From contig JBBSWW010000003.1 in assembly GCA_038046085.1 (NCBI GenBank), forward strand, positions 1 to 63,168: a DNA stretch of 63,168 nt, given 5' to 3'. Position numbers and translations under genes: made by a program. The stretch's first letter is position 1, and each line of letters starts with the position of its first letter. Shown here one piece after another: positions 5,823 to 63,168 of this stretch. Source of the DNA: Nanobdellota archaeon (GTDB lineage Archaea; Nanobdellota; Nanobdellia; SCGC-AAA011-G17; GW2011-AR18). The notes under the pieces are model-generated. The model ran no database searches. It saw nothing but the letters and a program-made list of their open reading frames with translations, and was not told the DNA's origin.

Positions 5823-5956
5823 TGCGGAGAACAGGATTCGAACCTGCGAAGGCACTAAGCCAATAGATATCTCAACAATCATTATAATTGCCAGATAAAA
5901 GGTTTTCACCTGCGGCCTCTTGAGTCTATTCCGTTTGGCCGCTCCGGAATCTCCGC
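5823..5956 (-). tRNA. tRNA-Leu(CAA) with a 50-nt intron, CCA not encoded
   Basis: Acceptor stem GCGGAGA/TCTCCGC. Anticodon stem ATAGA/TCTAT with loop CTCAAGA. Long variable arm TGGCTTAGTGCC. T-arm GCAGGTTCGAATCCTGT. Discriminator A. Confidence 0.85.
5869..5918 (-). other. tRNA intron at canonical 37/38 position
   Basis: 50 nt lie between anticodon-loop G37 and A38. Intron 3' part UUGAG pairs with CUCAA of the anticodon loop and leaves a 3-nt AUA bulge (bulge-helix-bulge-like). The boundary is ambiguous by 1 nt. Confidence 0.7.
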
Positions 5957-52454: not shown

Positions 52455-53135
52455 ATGAATATTCTTGAAGAGGTAAGTGATAAGAAAATGTTTGACAAAT
52501 CAATGTTAAAAACAACTGGAACAACAACTCTAGGTATGGTCTGTAAAGATGGAATAGTAATAGCTGCAGATAGAAAAATGACATTAGGTGGGCAGATTGT
52601 TTCTAGTAAAAAGTTTGAGAAAGCAATAATATTATCAGATGATATAGCAATAACAATAGCAGGATTAGTATCAGATGCACAATTATTAGTAAGATTAATC
52701 AAAGCACAGATAAAATTAGATGAACTGAAGAAAGGAAAAAAATTAAAAATAAGAGAAGTAGCAAACATGTTAGCAAATCTAGTATATGCTAATGTAAGAA
52801 AATATTCAACAATCCAAGGAATAACAGGATTCTTATTAGGCGGAAAAGACCATGAAGGATTCTATTTATATGAGATGGGAATGGATGGATCATTAACAAA
52901 ATTCGATGATTATGTAACAGATGGATCAGGAATGTTATTTGCAACAGGAGTATTAGAAGCAAATTACAAAGAAGATATGACAATAGAAGAGGGAGTTAAA
53001 TTAGCCATAAAAGCAGTAACAGCTTCAATGCAGAGAGATACAGCATCCGGAGCAGGAATGGATGTTATAACTATAACAAAGGAAGGAACTAAGAGAGTAT
53101 TTTCAAAACAATTAGATAATAAATTTGTAGCTTAG
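52455..53135 (+). CDS. psmB: proteasome subunit beta
   Basis: Propeptide then TTTLGMVCKDGIVIAADRK (Thr1). GSG region TDGSGMLFA. Confidence 0.9.
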   Translation: MNILEEVSDKKMFDKSMLKTTGTTTLGMVCKDGIVIAADRKMTLGGQIVSSKKFEKAIILSDDIAITIAGLVSDAQLLVRLIKAQIKLDELKKGKKLKIREVANMLANLVYANVRKYSTIQGITGFLLGGKDHEGFYLYEMGMDGSLTKFDDYVTDGSGMLFATGVLEANYKEDMTIEEGVKLAIKAVTASMQRDTASGAGMDVITITKEGTKRVFSKQLDNKFVA

Positions 53136-53167: not shown

Positions 53168-56100
53168 ATGGTAAAGATAATTGACGAAGTAAACAAGTAT
53201 TTGCCGCAAGATGCGAATATAACAGAGACAGTATTTGAGGGAGCAAACATAGTCCTCTATACAAAGAACAAGAAATTCTTATTAGACAATCAAGGAGTAA
53301 TAAAACAGATAGTTGACAATATAAAGAAACGTGTAGAGTTAAGAGCAGATCCATCAATAGTACTGGACATAGAGGATACTAAGGAATTAATCAAGAAAAC
53401 AATATCAGCAGAGGCAGGAGAGACAGAGATAATATTTGATGTTTCAAGATCAAGAGTAATAATAGAGGCAGAAAAACCAGGAATAGCAATAGGAAAAGGT
53501 GGAGATGTATTAAAAGAGATAAAAGCAAAGACTTTCTGGACACCAATAGTAAGAAGAATACCACCAATAAGATCACAATTATTAGAGAACATAAGACAGG
53601 TATTATATGATCATTCAGAATACAGAAAAAAATTCCTTAACAAAGTAGGAAAGAGAATCTATGAAGGGTGGACAAAAACTAAAAGAGATGAATGGATAAG
53701 ATTAACTTGTCTTGGAAGTGCAAGAGAGGTAGGAAGAAGCTGTTTCTTAATACAGACACCAGAATCAACAATAATGTTAGACTGTGGATTTAATGTAGCA
53801 GCACCAAGAGAGTTTGCATTCCCATATTTAGATGTTCCAGAATTCAATATACAAGAATTAGATGCAGTAATATTAAGCCATCCACATATTGATCATTGCG
53901 GAACATTACCTTACTTATACAAAATGGGATACAGAGGACCTGTTTATTGCACAGCACCAACAAGAGATGTAGCAGCATTATTATGTCTAGATATGAGTGA
54001 TATAGCAATGAAAGAGGGAAATGATCCATTATATGATACAGGAGATGTAAAAGAGATGGTGAAACATACTATCTGCTTAGATTATGGAGAGGTAGCTGAT
54101 ATAACACCAGATATGAGATTAACATTGTACAATGCAGGACATAACCTAGGAAGTGCTATGGTACACCTGCATATAGGAAATGGATTACACAATTTCTTGT
54201 ATTCATTAGATGCAAGCACTAAAATTACATTAATAGATCCAGAAAATAATACACAATTTATTGGAATAGGAGACTTTATAGATAAACAATTTGAGGAAAA
54301 AAATGGGTTAATAATAGATAATGGGTTTGTACAAGAAAAAGCAAATACAAAAGGATATGCTACAATTGCTTTTAATAAAAAAACATTAAAAAATGAAATA
54401 GTAAATATAACAAGTTTTGTAAGACATCCAATAAATGAAGAATTATATGAAATAAAAACAGAGAGTGGAAGATCAGTAAAAGTTACAAAATCACATAGTT
54501 TATTTACAGCAAAAGATGGAAAAATACTTCCTGCAGAAGTCTCAAAATTAAAAACTGGAGATTTCATAGTAGGATCAAAAAAAATACCATCATTAAATGT
54601 TAATGAACCTATAATAGATTTAATGCCTTATTCAAAAGAACTAAGAATAAAAATCGAAGATGATGCATACATAAATAATCTTATAATCAAACATGAAGCT
54701 GAATTTTCTAAATTAGAAAACAATGATAAATTAATAGTTAAAAGTGTGTTGTTTGATTATTATAAAGGTAATTATATAAAAGATATAAGAAATAAATATA
54801 AAATACACCCAAGAAGGATAAATAGAATCTTTAAACAATTAGGATTAAAAACTCATCCAAGAGTAAAGGATTCATTGCCTGATAAAGTAAGAATAACAAA
54901 GGACTTTGCAAGATTCTTAGGATATTATATCTCAGAAGGATGGCCAAATACTAAAGACCAAACAGTAGCTGTATCAAATACTAATAAAGAAATACTAGAA
55001 GATTGTTATAACATAATAAAAAAAGAATTCGGAATTGAAGGAGATCTTAGATATCAAGATGATGTTGTATTATTTACTTCTAAACAATTAAAATCATTGT
55101 TAAGTAATGTATTAAAATGTGGAAAAGATGCTTACACAAAAAGAATACCTAAAGAGTTATTATTAACAAATAGAGATGTGCAATCAGACTTGTTATATGG
55201 TCTATTTTCAGGAGATGGTGGGATAAGAGTAAGAGAAAAAGGAAGAGAGATAAACTATGCTAGTAAATCAAAAGGTCTAATAGAGGATATTAATTTTATA
55301 TTACTACAATTTGGAATAGTACCAACAATAGAATTTAATAAGACTTCAGAAATGAATAATCTGCATATTTATAATAAAGAAAAAATTGCTGAATTCTTGA
55401 GTGAAATAAATATAAATAACTCACAGAACACACAGTTAGTAGAGTCATTACTATCATTAAAACAAAATAAGGCAAGTTTTGATATGAGAATACCAATAAG
55501 TGCACTATCACAAACCATACAAAATGATATTTCAAAAACACCATGGCAAAATGCAGAAAGCTGTGGTATACAAAAATTAGAAAATGAAAATTTAACAGAA
55601 GATGACTTAAAGTTAATAAATTCTGATCTGATGTTTGATAAAATAAAATCTATTAAACAAGTAGAATCTACAGGAAAATATGTATATGACCTAAGAGTAG
55701 ATGGATATGAAAATTTCTTAGGCGGAGATGGATTCTTATTTATGCATAATACAGGAGATTTCAATTATGAGACATCTAATTTGTTAAGTTCTTCAGAATC
55801 AAAATTCCCAAGAGTGGAATCAGTAATGATGGAATCAACATACGGAACAAAACAAGATAATAGTCCATCAAGAAAAGAGAGCGAAGATGATTTAATAAGA
55901 ATAATAAATGAGACAGCAACAGCTGGAGGAAAGGTATTGATGCCAGTATTAGGAGTTGGAAGATCACAAGAGTGCATGCTGATATTAGAGAGAGCAATGG
56001 AAGAGAAGAAAATACCGCAGATGCCAATATATGTGCAGGGAATGGTATGGGATGTTACTGCGTTACATACAGCATATCCAGACTTCTTAAGCAACAGAGT

Positions 56101-56620
56101 AAAGAAAGGAATATTCCAACGTGATCATAATCCATTTTTAAGTCCAATATTCAAGAAAGTAATATCACAAAAAGAGATGGCAGAAATCAAAGAGGGAAAA
56201 GGACCATACGTAGTAATGGCAACATCAGGAATGTTACAAGGAGGACCATCACTAGAATACTTGAAAGCATTTGCTGAGAATCCTAAAAATTGTGTAGTGT
56301 TAACATCATATCAAGGTGTTGGTAGTATTGGAAGAAGATTACAGGATGGAGAGAAAGAATTGACTTTTACTTATGGCGGATCTAAAAGAATGGAAACAAT
56401 CAAGATTAATTTGCCAATATATACATTATCAGGATTTTCAGGACATAGTAACTTTAAACAATTAGTATCATGGGTAAAGAATATAGAACCAAAACCTAAA
56501 AAGTTCATTACAATACATGGAGATTATTCAAGATGCATAGAATTAGCTTCAGTAATATACCAACAGAACAGAGTAGAGACAGTAGCTCCTAAGAATCTAG
56601 AGACAATAAGATTGAGATAA
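53168..56620 (+). CDS. aCPSF1: aCPSF1 (KH-KH-metallo-beta-lactamase-beta-CASP RNase) carrying an intein
   Basis: KH GxxG GIAIGKGGDV, SHPHIDHCG, AGHNLGSAMVHLHIGNGLHNFLY | intein | TGDFNYE, ESTYG, GHS, HGD. The host part is 634 aa. Confidence 0.9.
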   Translation: MVKIIDEVNKYLPQDANITETVFEGANIVLYTKNKKFLLDNQGVIKQIVDNIKKRVELRADPSIVLDIEDTKELIKKTISAEAGETEIIFDVSRSRVIIEAEKPGIAIGKGGDVLKEIKAKTFWTPIVRRIPPIRSQLLENIRQVLYDHSEYRKKFLNKVGKRIYEGWTKTKRDEWIRLTCLGSAREVGRSCFLIQTPESTIMLDCGFNVAAPREFAFPYLDVPEFNIQELDAVILSHPHIDHCGTLPYLYKMGYRGPVYCTAPTRDVAALLCLDMSDIAMKEGNDPLYDTGDVKEMVKHTICLDYGEVADITPDMRLTLYNAGHNLGSAMVHLHIGNGLHNFLYSLDASTKITLIDPENNTQFIGIGDFIDKQFEEKNGLIIDNGFVQEKANTKGYATIAFNKKTLKNEIVNITSFVRHPINEELYEIKTESGRSVKVTKSHSLFTAKDGKILPAEVSKLKTGDFIVGSKKIPSLNVNEPIIDLMPYSKELRIKIEDDAYINNLIIKHEAEFSKLENNDKLIVKSVLFDYYKGNYIKDIRNKYKIHPRRINRIFKQLGLKTHPRVKDSLPDKVRITKDFARFLGYYISEGWPNTKDQTVAVSNTNKEILEDCYNIIKKEFGIEGDLRYQDDVVLFTSKQLKSLLSNVLKCGKDAYTKRIPKELLLTNRDVQSDLLYGLFSGDGGIRVREKGREINYASKSKGLIEDINFILLQFGIVPTIEFNKTSEMNNLHIYNKEKIAEFLSEININNSQNTQLVESLLSLKQNKASFDMRIPISALSQTIQNDISKTPWQNAESCGIQKLENENLTEDDLKLINSDLMFDKIKSIKQVESTGKYVYDLRVDGYENFLGGDGFLFMHNTGDFNYETSNLLSSSESKFPRVESVMMESTYGTKQDNSPSRKESEDDLIRIINETATAGGKVLMPVLGVGRSQECMLILERAMEEKKIPQMPIYVQGMVWDVTALHTAYPDFLSNRVKKGIFQRDHNPFLSPIFKKVISQKEMAEIKEGKGPYVVMATSGMLQGGPSLEYLKAFAENPKNCVVLTSYQGVGSIGRRLQDGEKELTFTYGGSKRMETIKINLPIYTLSGFSGHSNFKQLVSWVKNIEPKPKKFITIHGDYSRCIELASVIYQQNRVETVAPKNLETIRLR
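54203..55750 (+). mobile_element. 516-aa intein with LAGLIDADG homing endonuclease domain
   Basis: Starts SLDASTKITL (Ser1). Block B VKVTKSHSL. LAGLIDADG motifs FLGYYISEGW and LLYGLFSGDGG. Ends VYDLRVDGYENFLGGDGFLFMHN, followed by Thr+1. Confidence 0.85.
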
Positions 56621-58974: not shown

Positions 58975-59073
58975 TTTAATACTAGTTAACTATTGTTAAA
59001 ATTATTATGATTAAAATAATCCTATTAAGAAGTGAATATATAATCTTATAAATAAAAGAATTCATTAATAACT

Positions 59074-59439
59074 ATGCAGCATGAAGTTAGATTATATGTT
59101 CTAGAGAAAAATAATGTCATCAACGGTGATAGAAGATATAAACATATTTTTGGATTCTATGATGGAGAGTGTGAAAAATTATTAGAAGCTGGAAATTTTG
59201 ATGGATACAAAGTTGTTTATAGAAATAGGACAACAAGCCAGAGATCATTATTTGCAATAGTAAAAGAGGCAGTAGATGTGTCAAATACTAAAGGAATATT
59301 AGATACTGAGGTTCTGGATTATATATTAGGAAATGAGAATACAGAAGAAATGCTTGTTGGAACAATAGTAAAATTAGATGAGTTAAAAGATTCTACAGTA
59401 GCATATTATAATCTTGGAGATACAAACGCTACATTATAA
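59074..59439 (+). CDS. hypothetical protein
   Basis: 121-aa ORF with no motif. Confidence 0.4.
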   Translation: MQHEVRLYVLEKNNVINGDRRYKHIFGFYDGECEKLLEAGNFDGYKVVYRNRTTSQRSLFAIVKEAVDVSNTKGILDTEVLDYILGNENTEEMLVGTIVKLDELKDSTVAYYNLGDTNATL

Positions 59440-59443
59440 AAAA

Positions 59444-59731
59444 TTAAAATTTACTACCAGAAAATATCTTGGACATGGTATCTGACATATCAACATAAGG
59501 ACTTAATCTTCCGCCACCAGCTGTATTACCTGTGTTATTAGCCTGAGGCTGTGGAGCTGATTGTTGAACTTGTGGCTGAGTAACCTGAGGTCTAGGAGCA
59601 GCAGTCTGAACTGAATTGTTTGAACTTGAATTTTTTTCTCTCTTATTAACCAAATCCTGTAAAGCAGAAATCAATTTTTTAAGATCATCAAGAGACTCTT
59701 TTTCTGTATTAAAACTAATTTTCACATCCAT
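59444..59731 (-). CDS. hypothetical small protein with Gln/Pro-rich linker
   Basis: 95 aa. APRPQVTQPQVQQSAPQPQ low-complexity centre. Confidence 0.4.
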   Translation of the reverse strand: MDVKISFNTEKESLDDLKKLISALQDLVNKREKNSSSNNSVQTAAPRPQVTQPQVQQSAPQPQANNTGNTAGGGRLSPYVDMSDTMSKIFSGSKF

Positions 59732-59796
59732 TTTTCAACTGAGTGGAAGAGTCTATTTAAATGTTTTTTGTTTGCCCTCTAAACAAACCCTAAATA

Positions 59797-61272
59797 CTAA
59801 TTAAAACCACTTTTGCTAAGATGACTTAATGATTCTGATAAAATATTATAATTAGGTTCATATTTTTTATAATATTCAACGAATCTTTCTTCAATAATCT
59901 TCAAAGAAATTATAGCATTAGACATAGTAGCATCTTTAATCTCATTATTGTTAATCCTAACAGCCTGTTCATAGATCTCTAAAGCCCTTAAAATAGATGA
60001 ATTGAGATACGCTAGTTCATATCTATCATAATCAATAATCTTAACATCTGAATGTTCATTAAAACTATCCCAATGCTTCTTTATTATCTCTCTTTTTTGT
60101 CCATAATCAAGGAATAAGTGCTGATCTAAAAGATTTGTATCATCAAAAACAATAGGTGATTTACGTTCTCCTTCAGTATCAAGAATAATAACACGATTCA
60201 TCTCATCTAATTTAAAATTTCTAGAATGAGCATCCTTATTATAAACCCTGATAATTCCTTCTAAACTATTAAGAGCTGGTTCTAAACTATACATGAGAGG
60301 ATCAACAAAACTTGAAGGATATAATCTAGAGATCCTTTCACGAATACTCTTAGAGATATCACGCTCAACAAAATCACCTTTAACTCTAGCATGTAATAAA
60401 CCAAGAATATCAGCAATCCTGTAAAAATCATTTACAGATACATCATTTAATTTAATCCTTTGTTCAAGAGTATTACCAGAAGCCTGTTCCATGACATAAT
60501 AAGTTTCATTATTAAATTCAATACTCCCAATAGGATTAACAGTAGAACAATCATTCCTTAATGAAATAATAGAACCAATCTGTTCAGCCATAGAAATTTC
60601 CTTAGCTAATCCATCAGATGACTGACTTTTGTAAATAATCTCAGAACCTAATAATGGATCCTCAATTGTAAAAACAGAGTTCTTATTACCTGTAATTTTA
60701 TTAACAGAACTACTTTCTAAAGCTTTTTTAGCAGCTTCTAATTTTTTCTTCCTAGAAATATCCTTATTCCCATACATAGAGTATAATCTTCCGACAAGAT
60801 ATGAGAAAGAGAAAGAATCAGCAGTAGGAAAGTTATGATAAAATGGATCCTTACAACTAGAATCAATACCATCAAGCAGTGCAAGATTAATAATATCCTT
60901 TTCTTCTTTTATTTTCTTATTAATAATACTTTTACACTTTAAATAAATAGATTTTATATTACCAAAGAAACTTAGTTTATTTTTTGTCCTAAGATCCTGA
61001 ATATTCTCTTCAAAAATATTAAAAGCTTTCCTGTAACATTGATAAGCAGATCTTTTATCATGACCATAATAAGAATCGCCTAAAGACAGAGTACGTTCTA
61101 TCTCATCACCAACATTTTCACTTAAACCAATCAATCTTTTCTTAACTTCAATGGACTTTTTATTATTTCTAGTCAATGAATAAAATAACTTTAATAAAGA
61201 GAATCTTATATATTTAGAATCAGAAGGACTATCTTGTTCCTTAACAATATCATCGAGACATGACAATGGCAT
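59797..61272 (-). CDS. protein-kinase-like fold protein with helical N-terminal domain
   Basis: IIYKSQ...KEISMAEQIG, YYVMEQASGNTL, NKDAHSRNFKLD (DxHxxN-like), VIILDTEG. Host-like T-ending codons. Confidence 0.45.
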   Translation of the reverse strand: MPLSCLDDIVKEQDSPSDSKYIRFSLLKLFYSLTRNNKKSIEVKKRLIGLSENVGDEIERTLSLGDSYYGHDKRSAYQCYRKAFNIFEENIQDLRTKNKLSFFGNIKSIYLKCKSIINKKIKEEKDIINLALLDGIDSSCKDPFYHNFPTADSFSFSYLVGRLYSMYGNKDISRKKKLEAAKKALESSSVNKITGNKNSVFTIEDPLLGSEIIYKSQSSDGLAKEISMAEQIGSIISLRNDCSTVNPIGSIEFNNETYYVMEQASGNTLEQRIKLNDVSVNDFYRIADILGLLHARVKGDFVERDISKSIRERISRLYPSSFVDPLMYSLEPALNSLEGIIRVYNKDAHSRNFKLDEMNRVIILDTEGERKSPIVFDDTNLLDQHLFLDYGQKREIIKKHWDSFNEHSDVKIIDYDRYELAYLNSSILRALEIYEQAVRINNNEIKDATMSNAIISLKIIEERFVEYYKKYEPNYNILSESLSHLSKSGFN

Positions 61273-61361
61273 TTGTTAATTAAAAATATATACTTAATAA
61301 ATATTTATACAGTAAAAATAGATAGTTTTTTAATATAAAAAATCACTAAAAACCTGAGAAG

Positions 61362-63168
61362 ATGATAAAAAAAGAGTACCTGGTCATAGTTAGTTTGCTA
61401 ATCCTATTTTTATTACTACCAAAAAATGCAATTGCTGATTTTCCAGACTGTTTAGGTGATACAACAAACGGAATATGGACCATAAGCAATACACAGACAA
61501 TAACTTCAAATCAGGTATGTTATAATATCACAATAAAAGCAGGAGGAAAACTAAGAGTGCAGAATGGTGCTATCACCTCATCAATAAACATAACTGTTGG
61601 AAACTTATCTGTGGAAAGTGGCGGAGAAATAAATACTACAGGATTTGGATATATTGGAAGCTCTACAACAGCAACAGGACCTGGAGCTGGAATAAGCAGG
61701 CGTGCTGGAGGGAGTTACGGAGGGAGGGGTGGTGCAAAACAAGAGACAAACATTGGAAATGTATACGGAAATCCATTAAGACCAACAGATCTGGGAAGCG
61801 GAGGATCGGGAAGCGGAACAACTTCAGGTTCTGGTGGTGGTGGAGCTATACTCATAAATGTAACACAGAACTTTATACTTAATGGAACGGTTGTAGCTAA
61901 TGGAAACAGTACATCTACTAATTCTAATCTTGGAGGCGGTTCTGGAGGATCAATATTAGTTTATACATATAATCTTTCAGGACTTGGGAATTTTACAACA
62001 TTAGGAGGTAAAAGTGGATCTGGTGGTGGAGGAGGAGGTGGTGGTGGAGGAAGAATAGCAGTATACTATAATTATTCAACATTAAACTTTTCAAGATCAA
62101 GTGCCGAGGGTTCAAAAGATGATACAACATATCAAGGAAGTACTGGAACATTAATAACAATAGATGTTGTCAATAATAATGCTACAATATATGGATGGAA
62201 CTGGAACAGCAGTGTAGATTTAAGCACATTCAGTAATGTAACATTCGTATCAGCAAACACAACAATAGATAATAATGATATAATAAGAATAGACAACAAC
62301 TTTCAATTCGACGGACAATCATATTTTAACTGCAGAACAAACATAAGTAAACAGATTATATTATCTGAGATAGGAACAGGAAACATCAGTTCTTATCTAT
62401 CTAATTTTAGAAATGAATGTGGAATGACAAATGTTACTATAAATACTAGCAATCCTCTATTAATTTCTGGAAATACTTTACTAAATTTTAGTAGTATTAA
62501 TTTTGATAATTCAAGTGTTGATGTCGCTATATCAAATTCAAAAATATTCTCAAACTTTAATTTCACATTAAGAAACATAACAATAGATGTAAACTCAATA
62601 ATAAACGCAACAGGAAAAGGATATTCAGGAGGAATAAGCACAGGAACAGGACCAGGAGGACCTACAAGAGGATCAAGCGGAGCAACACACGGCGGAAGAG
62701 GAATGACAGTAAGCGGAACAAACAATGATATCAACGTATACGGAAATGCGTTAAATCCTATAAATCTTGGAAGTGGCGGGAGTGGTGCAGGATCAACAAG
62801 AGGCGGAAGAGGAGGAGGATTCATATATATAAATTCAACAAATAAACTAACACTTGATGCAACATTAAGCACCGATGGCACGCAAGCTTTCGGTGGATTA
62901 ACAACAGCTGGCGGCGGTACTGGTGGATCAATACTATTATATGCATACAATATAACAGGAACAGGAAACTTCAGTGCAATAGGTGGTGAGGGTTTCAATG
63001 TCATCTCTTCAGGAGGAAGAATAGCAGTATACTATAATCATACAACAATAAACTTTTCAAAATCTAGTGTGGAAGGCACAAAACTTTCAATAAGTGGAAC
63101 ATTGCCTTTAATCCCTGCTACTGGTACTTTTATTGCTGTAGATCAGCGTTTCAATAATGCTACAATAC
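61362..63168 (+). CDS. giant secreted Gly-rich beta-helix-like repeat surface protein (5' partial, runs off the window)
   Basis: I translated 602 codons from the ATG at 61362 and found no stop. Signal peptide LVIVSLLILFLLLPKNAIA. It is absent from the ORF track because no stop lies in the window. Confidence 0.75.
   Translation, partial: MIKKEYLVIVSLLILFLLLPKNAIADFPDCLGDTTNGIWTISNTQTITSNQVCYNITIKAGGKLRVQNGAITSSINITVGNLSVESGGEINTTGFGYIGSSTTATGPGAGISRRAGGSYGGRGGAKQETNIGNVYGNPLRPTDLGSGGSGSGTTSGSGGGGAILINVTQNFILNGTVVANGNSTSTNSNLGGGSGGSILVYTYNLSGLGNFTTLGGKSGSGGGGGGGGGGRIAVYYNYSTLNFSRSSAEGSKDDTTYQGSTGTLITIDVVNNNATIYGWNWNSSVDLSTFSNVTFVSANTTIDNNDIIRIDNNFQFDGQSYFNCRTNISKQIILSEIGTGNISSYLSNFRNECGMTNVTINTSNPLLISGNTLLNFSSINFDNSSVDVAISNSKIFSNFNFTLRNITIDVNSIINATGKGYSGGISTGTGPGGPTRGSSGATHGGRGMTVSGTNNDINVYGNALNPINLGSGGSGAGSTRGGRGGGFIYINSTNKLTLDATLSTDGTQAFGGLTTAGGGTGGSILLYAYNITGTGNFSAIGGEGFNVISSGGRIAVYYNHTTINFSKSSVEGTKLSISGTLPLIPATGTFIAVDQRFNNATI
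61621..63168 (+). repeat. tandem ~966-nt (322-aa) coding repeat units
   Basis: aagaatagcagtatactataat recurs at 62051 and 63017. The protein units GxGY..G...GPG...NVYGN.L.P..LGSGGSG...GGSIL.Y.YN..G.GNF...GG...GGRIAVYYN.(S/T)T(L/I)NFS.SS.EG align. Confidence 0.8.
62022..62051 (+). repeat. (GGN)10 poly-Gly tract
   Basis: ggt ggt gga gga gga ggt ggt ggt gga gga. Confidence 0.9.

Follow-up and report, generated by a model that had tools for sequence, protein, structure and literature searches.

A LAGLIDADG intein at the TGD motif of the archaeal ribonuclease aCPSF1/FttA, and further intein sites in the same protein

What are 516 additional residues doing in the middle of aCPSF1/FttA, the beta-CASP ribonuclease of archaea? 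The question is raised by a 63,168-nucleotide stretch of a Nanobdellota metagenome-assembled genome (MAG) (GCA_038046085.1, contig JBBSWW010000003.1, positions 1 to 63,168), here called the window. A first-pass annotation had read its open reading frame (ORF) of 1150 amino acids (aa) as a 634-aa RNase of the KH-KH-metallo-beta-lactamase (MBL)-beta-CASP type interrupted by 516 aa, and this division proves exact at 54203..55750. The insert is very probably a canonical class-1 intein with a two-motif LAGLIDADG homing endonuclease, residing in the aCPSF1/FttA of a Woesearchaeota-type (DPANN) archaeon and predicted to be active in both splicing and DNA cleavage. This answer is carried by the anatomy of the insert, its exact junctions, its fold, the conservation of its catalytic residues, purifying selection, and a scar-free presence/absence polymorphism. 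The same protein is also a host for inteins at other positions, as described in the last section.

The insert, its junctions and its anatomy

The precursor gene lies at 53168..56620 (+) in the ORF list of the window, has 1150 codons and a stop, and corresponds by exact-sequence look-up to NCBI MEK6947736.1. The frame is uninterrupted across 3450 nt although the genome is AT-rich. The whole protein scores 820.5 bits against TIGR03675, the aCPSF1 equivalog model (cut-off 580.2), and the Pfam domains KH_TffA, KH_2, Lactamase_B, Beta-Casp and RMMBL are matched, which corresponds to the architecture KH-KH-MBL-beta-CASP-RMMBL. The spliced extein contains the aCPSF1 motifs HPHIDH, NAGH, TGD, ESTYG, GFSGHS and IHGD, with the full set of metal-binding motifs 2, 3 and 4 and of beta-CASP motifs A, B and C. 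Judged from these sequence features, the ORF without its insert is a full-length orthologue of aCPSF1/FttA (arCOG00543).

The N-extein (residues 1-345; 53168..54202, +) holds two KH domains and MBL motifs 1-3 and ends in ...GLHNFLY. The insert occupies residues 346-861, and the C-extein of 289 aa (55751..56617, +) starts with Thr+1 (55751-55753) of the TGD motif; together the exteins amount to 634 aa. The break had been placed between HIGNGLHNFLY and TGDFNYE, and these peptides indeed stop at residue 345 and begin at residue 862, respectively. The identity of the motif-4 aspartate is established through human CPSF-73: in a 67-aa segment spanning the junction, extein His325 of motif 3 (NAGH, 54131-54142, +) is aligned with His158 and extein Asp348 of motif 4 (55757-55759, +) with Asp179. 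The break, Tyr345/Thr346 in extein numbering, is therefore two residues ahead of the zinc-binding motif-4 Asp. The spliced extein aligns end-to-end and gap-free at the junction with the solved aCPSF1/FttA structures (2ycb, E=4e-199, then 3af5, 2xr1 and 9bct), and just as cleanly with intein-free orthologues. The +1 residue of every orthologue examined, with or without an intein, is Thr or Ser, and the host's own conserved Thr of TGD would serve as the +1 nucleophile.

The closest relative found is the Woesearchaeota MAG GCA_013331775.1 (L006, protein P0008; also archaeon GW2011_AR18), which shares synteny and 80-89% DNA identity with the window. Despite 94% aa identity of the exteins, the 516-aa block is absent from it, and the blastn matches between the window and L006 end and resume at window positions 54205 and 55749. 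In L006 the unoccupied site is scar-free and reads TTTTTGTAT|ACAGGGGAT (...AACTTTTTGTAT|ACAGGGGATTTC...; ATAGGAAACGGAGCACATAACTTTTTGTAT|ACAGGGGATTTCAATTATGAGACATCAAAT), the bar marking the insertion point. This position is called site b below; it is unoccupied in L006/P0008 and in every one of the listed orthologues, the 120 best matches to the window's spliced extein. The clean 516-aa insertion expected by the first-pass annotation is thus borne out by the structures and by the relative alike.

The insert consists of a Hint splicing domain whose halves flank a LAGLIDADG homing-endonuclease domain, all on the forward strand. Ser1, the N-terminal splicing nucleophile (54203..54205), follows the extein Tyr directly and opens block A (SLD, within SLDAST, intein residues 1-6). 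Block B is the TxxH motif Thr95-Lys-Ser-His98 (TKSH, 54485..54496). The first LAGLIDADG motif, ARFLGYYISEG (residues 236-246, 54908..54940), carries the catalytic Glu245, and the second, LLYGLFSGDGG (residues 330-340, 55190..55222), carries the catalytic Asp338; between them lies endonuclease block D, AYTKRIP, with Lys313 (55130..55150). The C-terminal blocks F (YVYDLRVDGYENF; YVYD...ENF, with Asp496) and G (GFLFMHN, residues 510-516, with His515-Asn516) occupy 55679..55750 and are matched by TIGR01443. All motifs quoted in the first-pass annotation (SLDAST, TKSH, YISEGW, FSGDGG, the terminal HN and Thr+1) are present, and Ser1, HN and Thr+1 stand exactly at the boundaries.

Profile searches agree with this layout at levels far beyond chance. 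The insert matches Pfam Intein_splicing (E=7e-27), LAGLIDADG_3 in two stretches (E=5e-22), TIGR01445 intein_Nterm (E=8e-10) and TIGR01443 intein_Cterm (E=4e-5), and Pfam PF14890 is matched as a split domain over intein residues 45-516. The best non-host NCBIfam match is the intein-containing RpoA'' model NF011491 (E=7e-39). When the intein is compared with the PDB by phmmer, the Thermococcus kodakarensis intein PI-PkoII (2cw7) comes first (E=2e-29), followed by the Mja and Mvu TFIIB mini-inteins, VMA inteins and others.

An AlphaFold2 (AF2) model built on a shallow alignment of eight sequences has a mean predicted local distance difference test (pLDDT) of 77.7 and a predicted template-modelling score (pTM) of 0.73. 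Foldseek against the PDB again places PI-PkoII 2cw7 first (E=4e-26, template-modelling (TM) score 0.65), then the Tli and Pho VMA inteins (7qss, 7qst), PI-PfuI (1dq3, E=6e-17) and PI-SceI. The splicing domain matches the mini-inteins of RadA, CDC21 and TFIIB at target-normalised TM 0.5-0.6. For the endonuclease core, the matches to I-DmoI and I-Tsp061I reach target-normalised TM 0.63-0.70; the endonuclease domains of PI-PkoII and PI-PfuI are matched as well. The predicted secondary structure of residues 233-401 agrees with the pseudo-dimeric alpha-beta-beta-alpha-beta-beta-alpha core. By sequence and model, the insert is thus best described as a class-1 intein with a two-motif LAGLIDADG endonuclease, the standard bifunctional architecture in archaea.

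Between the N-terminal splicing half and the endonuclease lies a helical segment at intein residues ~190-215 (KYKIHPRRINRIFKQLGLK; window 54770-54850), which may be a DNA-recognition region. To the eye it resembles a helix-turn-helix (HTH) DNA-binding module, but such a module is unsupported, the only match being HTH_Tnp_ISL3 at E=0.19.

Same-site alleles, selection and composition

The site-b allele is found in more than 40 other public sequences, in aCPSF1 genes of Woesearchaeota-type archaea and of Bathyarchaeia, at 35-100% identity. These alleles share the junction consensus ...N[FLIV][LIV]Y|S[LVTA]D ... HN|[TS]xD.... The identical protein is present on four contigs, and an independent contig from the Hainich H51 groundwater metagenome (L008) carries it at 100% identity; the precursor is thus no assembly artefact. 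Site b is also occupied in two species-representative MAGs, L001 and L002 (65-67% identity), in three metagenome protein fragments, in three representatives of 50% clusters (P0128-130; 53, 42 and 38% identity), and on 24 JGI/ENA metagenome contigs (L008-L031). The group at 36-38% identity belongs to the Bathyarchaeia. Its members include 'archaeon RBG_16_50_20', and its neighbours without an intein carry the name aCPSF1 [Ca. Bathyarchaeia]; approximately 24 Bathyarchaeia clusters (90% identity) have a site-b intein. Some alleles are labelled by JGI 'predicted metal-dependent RNase/intein/homing endonuclease'. The window's own protein cluster is missing from the lists of homologous proteins, so prevalence is not readable from those lists.

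Even though the pairwise identity among the 26 complete site-b inteins falls to ~32%, their key residues are retained. Ser1, His98, Glu245, Gly246, Gly337, Asp338, Val494, Tyr495, Asp496, Glu503, Asn504, Phe505, His515 and Asn516 are invariant in all 26 precursors, as are Arg314 and Pro316 of block D. Lys313 is likewise invariant but for one exception seen by eye, the Bathyarchaeia protein P0300 (TERVP), and position 95 of block B is Thr in most and Ser in P0130. All 26 are 505-516 aa long, and the endonuclease is deleted in none. The ratio of nonsynonymous to synonymous divergence (dN/dS) of the intein among the window, L001 and L002 is ~0.11-0.18, a value that is only indicative with dS saturated at 1.3-2.3; for the extein against L006 it is ~0.07 (dS ~0.56). 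Taken together, these sequence comparisons suggest that the whole intein is, roughly, under purifying selection.

One related sequence departs from this pattern. In P0001 (L003 = L012, ~655-665) a single nucleotide is deleted three codons inside the intein (TCC TTA GA-G GAA for TCC TTA GAx GGA). A split or rearranged gene without an N-extein was considered for it and rejected, as the N-extein sits in the adjacent frame and was split off by the gene caller because of the 1-nt frameshift. The deletion could stem from sequencing or assembly, or it could mark a real pseudogene.

The first-pass annotation had also noted a higher use of ATT, ACT, CCT and GCT codons in the insert and had taken this as a hint of foreign origin. 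The named codons are indeed relatively commoner in the intein than in the extein, but the conclusion drawn from them does not hold. The GC content is 25.7% in the intein and 34.3% in the extein (12% vs 24% at third codon positions), and the GC profile falls exactly across the intein. For the 51 other ORFs of the window the mean is 28.8 +/- 2.9%; the intein is the 8th lowest of 51, whereas the extein lies above 50 of the 51 genes. The codon-usage distance of the intein is 0.101, against 0.119 +/- 0.023 for the 51 window genes, which places it near their average. The higher use of the named codons therefore moves the intein towards the genome average and not away from it. A foreign origin argued from codon usage or GC is rejected: the composition of the intein is ordinary for the window, and it is the extein that stands out. 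Composition gives no evidence of recent foreign origin for the intein.

Predicted splicing and homing, and the rival explanations

aCPSF1 is essential in M. maripaludis, where its nuclease activity is needed for termination in vivo (PMC7515710), and 95% of archaeal genomes have a single copy of it (PMC8653824). No second aCPSF1 copy is found in the 63-kb window. The gene would be expressed as the 1150-aa precursor, with the MBL fold split between motif 3 His325 and motif 4 Asp348, and because its core is divided between two metal ligands the precursor should be catalytically dead. An inactive precursor of an essential, usually single-copy protein with no second copy in the window means that the intein must presumably splice, and the essential host together with the intact catalytic set argues for the same.

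Splicing would follow the established chemistry of class-1 inteins. An N-O acyl shift at Ser1 would form an ester, which would be attacked by Thr+1. Subsequently, cyclisation of Asn516, aided by His515 and residues of blocks B and F, would release the intein, and an O-N shift would restore a normal peptide bond. The expected products are a 634-aa active aCPSF1, with the ligated junction peptide ...GLHNFLYTGDFNYE... (GLHNFLYTGDFNYETSNLLSSSESK), and a free intein of 516 aa. Both nucleophiles, Ser1 and Thr+1, are hydroxyls, so redox control through cysteines would be unavailable. The free intein would then cut intein-less aCPSF1 alleles site-specifically, with a target across ...CACAATTTCTTGTAT|ACAGGAGATTTCAAT..., and the intein would be copied into them as the break is repaired (homing). 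Homing is expected because the endonuclease active site is conserved, site-b endonuclease deletions are absent, and presence and absence are patchy and scar-free.

Several points weigh against the reading of the insert as a splicing and homing intein. The putative endonuclease activity is read from conserved residues, and the AF2 model has a low-confidence segment at intein residues 419-462. In addition, pairwise identities of intein and extein co-vary with r=0.95, a value inflated by the two-clade structure of the sample; between Woesearchaeota and Bathyarchaeia the extein is 43% and the intein 35% identical. Prolonged vertical co-descent would explain this covariation no less well than frequent horizontal homing. 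The intein is slightly more divergent than the extein throughout, and recent horizontal transfer across phyla is unsupported, given the same correlation and an intein identity that is never clearly above that of the extein. Homing, if active, would therefore occur mostly within lineages.

These observations lend some weight to a rival, unlikely on balance, in which the intein is still competent in splicing while its endonuclease is no longer mobile, being either inactive or left without intein-free targets in the population. Such an intein would persist vertically, since it is seldom lost precisely, and any imprecise loss from an essential gene is lethal. The co-varying identities, with an intein never clearly more similar between lineages, agree with it, as does a composition fully ameliorated to the host genome; moreover, the site-a mini-intein of Woesearchaeota relatives is already without an endonuclease, so such decay does occur in aCPSF1. 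Yet Glu245, Asp338 and the Arg-x-Pro of block D are invariant in all 26 site-b alleles, with Lys313 retained in all but one, and none of the 26 has its endonuclease domain deleted. Purifying selection across the whole intein also speaks against it, and the empty, scar-free site in a relative at a dS of only ~0.56 indicates recent gain or precise loss.

A second rival supposes a degenerate insert that does not splice, in a pseudogene or an inactive aCPSF1, with the function supplied by a copy elsewhere in the genome. The search for a second copy covers 63 kb of the genome only, and the frameshifted contig L003/L012 shows a lesion just inside a related intein; nevertheless this explanation is very improbable when set against the intact 3450-nt frame in an AT-rich genome, the complete and conserved splicing residues, the strong purifying selection on the extein (~0.07 against L006), the usual single-copy state of aCPSF1 (PMC8653824), and the dozens of intact homologous precursors. 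That the 516 aa are a retained lineage-specific accessory domain, or the product of a chimeric metagenome assembly, is hardly credible at all. The source is indeed a MAG, and nothing further favours this; the insert itself is matched significantly by intein and endonuclease profiles and structures, it interrupts the MBL core between two motifs that bind metal, it is absent from the 94%-identical orthologue, and its junctions recur in more than 40 independent contigs or proteins from different samples and at least two phyla. The bifunctional class-1 intein is thus the preferred reading of 54203..55750, an intein of the ordinary kind and a solid, tidy case that serves annotation and intein ecology but is not mechanistically surprising.

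Further intein sites, significance and known systems

aCPSF1 has at least four intein sites, designated a, d, b and c, and all inserts match Pfam Intein_splicing. Site b of the window type (...Y|S...HN|T/S) holds the inteins of 505-516 aa described above, two residues ahead of the motif-4 Asp.

Site a (HxHxDH|C...HN|CG) lies directly after MBL motif 2, which in the window is HPHIDH at 53879..53896 (+), with the site at 53896|53897 empty. It holds either a mini-intein of 175 aa or a LAGLIDADG intein of 443 aa. The mini-intein, with Cys1 and Cys+1, is present in the Woesearchaeota relatives P0008, P0022, P0026, P0027 and P0037. The closest relatives of the window have site a occupied and site b empty (L006:10001-12430), whereas the window is the reverse, and the blastn alignment of the window with L006 also breaks at ~53892-53899, at site a. 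Among the Bathyarchaeia, the 443-aa full-length intein is found at site a in P0362, and together with a site-b intein in P0296 and P0304 (1588 aa); all four occupancy states of sites a and b are seen in this group.

Site d (GPVY[C/M]|S...HN|TAPTRD) lies in a conserved loop after motif 2. In the window it is empty and reads GPVYC|TAPTRD (53936..53968, +; junction 53950|53951). The contig L009 (L009:1601-6412; JGI contig Ga0209542_10009869) encodes a 1604-aa precursor with a site-b intein and, in addition, a 451-aa insert at site d, GPVYM|SVDY...CLHN|TAPTRD, which matches Pfam Intein_splicing (1e-24) and LAGLIDADG_3 (2e-12).

Site c (GF|S...HN|SGHS) lies two residues ahead of the His of beta-CASP motif B, a residue that is catalytic in P. 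abyssi aCPSF1 (PMC3553952). The motif GFSGHS of the window (56432..56449, +) has this site empty at 56437|56438. The Woesearchaeota MAG contig CAYSFG010000014 (L001:4966-9819) encodes a 1617-aa precursor with two full-length LAGLIDADG inteins. Its site-b intein is 68% identical to that of the window, with Ser at +1; its site-c insert (GF|SVPY...MLHN|SGHS, 470 aa) is unrelated to the site-b intein and matches Intein_splicing (2e-18) and LAGLIDADG_3 (2e-13).

aCPSF1 thus hosts inteins at several sites: three of them (a, b and c) are right next to metal-binding or catalytic motifs, and the fourth, d, falls within a conserved loop. In the boldest picture, aCPSF1/FttA would be an unrecognised intein hot-spot of at least two archaeal phyla. 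Since the unspliced precursor is without a working nuclease fold, condition-dependent splicing of these inteins, whose nucleophiles Ser1 and Thr+1 are both oxygens, might gate transcription termination genome-wide at the post-translational level, by analogy with the conditional splicing reported for RadA inteins. The multi-site part of this picture is observed directly; the regulatory gate is pure speculation, and as a whole the picture is improbable.

Within the window, the aCPSF1 ORF is the only one recovered when the inteins of sites a, b and c are compared by phmmer with all six-frame ORFs of 80 aa or longer, so no other intein is found there. The upstream neighbour is a proteasome beta subunit (52455..53135, +; Pfam Proteasome E=4e-45), which also precedes aCPSF1 in relatives, and the gene order is the same in L004-L007. 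Farther away, an Rfam tRNA model is matched end-to-end (model 1-71) over 134 nt at 5823-5956 (-), with 38 bits against a gathering score of 29, whereas ARAGORN reports no tRNA in the whole 63-kb window; this suggests an intron-containing archaeal tRNA missed by the ARAGORN settings. At the other end, the ORF 61350-63167 runs off the window (>606 aa) without a Pfam match. Its counterparts in L004-L007 vary greatly in length (1143, 1490 and 1808 aa), and window 59010-63167 gives multiple internal off-diagonal blastn matches with L006:13141-19277, which suggests a repeat-rich, fast-changing large protein.

With this intein, the general archaeal transcription-termination factor, the orthologue of eukaryotic CPSF-73, joins the list of intein hosts. 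Inteins as a rule occupy catalytic motifs of conserved, essential proteins, and this rule now extends to an RNA-cleaving metallo-beta-lactamase enzyme. NCBI names the gene product only 'MAG: LAGLIDADG family homing endonuclease [Nanoarchaeota archaeon]', so the termination factor is invisible in the MAG annotation. The use of aCPSF1 as a phylogenetic marker has been suggested (PMC8653824), and its alignments would be corrupted by inteins of 175-516 aa at four sites unless these were removed. The natural alleles, with sites a, d, b and c, four a/b states, and mini- and full-length inteins, offer a ready system for studying intein gain, loss and interference, and they can furnish cysteine-free (Ser1/Thr+1) inteins of mesophilic archaea living in groundwater and sediment. 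The understanding of how inteins work is unchanged.

The first-pass annotation did not count aCPSF1 among the classical intein hosts, and the literature searches agree, though the allele is shared by dozens of public sequences and is not peculiar to the window. The searches, which covered sources other than InBase and subscription journals, yielded no relevant record of inteins in aCPSF1, CPSF, beta-CASP or FttA proteins, or in DPANN, Woesearchaeota or Bathyarchaeota. Lactamase, CPSF and ribonuclease hosts are unmentioned in the text of the large Novikova 2016 intein survey, and neither inteins nor insertions are brought up in a survey of 2,060 aCPSF1 orthologues (PMC8653824). As far as searched, host and site are therefore undescribed in the searchable literature, though the sequences have been public for years and are partly flagged by JGI annotation.

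Among known inteins, the T. kodakarensis DNA polymerase Pol-2 intein PI-PkoII (2cw7) and PI-PfuI (1dq3) are the nearest in kind. Like the window intein, they are archaeal and bifunctional, have ~450-540 aa, and combine a Hint domain with a LAGLIDADG endonuclease of two motifs, preceded by an additional region that separates it from the N-terminal splicing half. In contrast, the identity is only ~20%, their hosts are a family-B DNA polymerase or a ribonucleotide reductase and not aCPSF1, and residues 130-227 of the window intein, predicted to be helical, do not align with residues 128-270 of PI-PkoII. The Mja and Mvu TFIIB mini-inteins (5o9j and 5o9i) and the RNA polymerase A'' inteins (NF011491) likewise reside in the archaeal transcription apparatus, and the N- and C-terminal splicing blocks of 5o9j are ~30% identical to those of the window intein (E=2e-26). 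However, these inteins belong to other host proteins and sites, and the solved TFIIB inteins are without an endonuclease.

Haloarchaeal MCM/cdc21 has four intein sites (PMC10643990). Together with archaeal PolB, RFC and ribonucleotide reductase (RNR), it resembles aCPSF1 as an essential conserved gene with several sites beside catalytic motifs, with patchy occupancy and with full-length and mini-inteins mixed. Such hosts are DNA-metabolism ATPases and polymerases, whereas aCPSF1 is an RNA-cleaving MBL/beta-CASP nuclease, here of uncultivated Woesearchaeota-type archaea and Bathyarchaeia. Finally, the spliced KH-KH-MBL-beta-CASP extein is a full-length counterpart of the intein-free aCPSF1/FttA proteins (2ycb, 3af5, 2xr1 and 9bct) and of eukaryotic CPSF-73 and INTS11; unlike the window precursor, none of these solved or characterised proteins has an intein.

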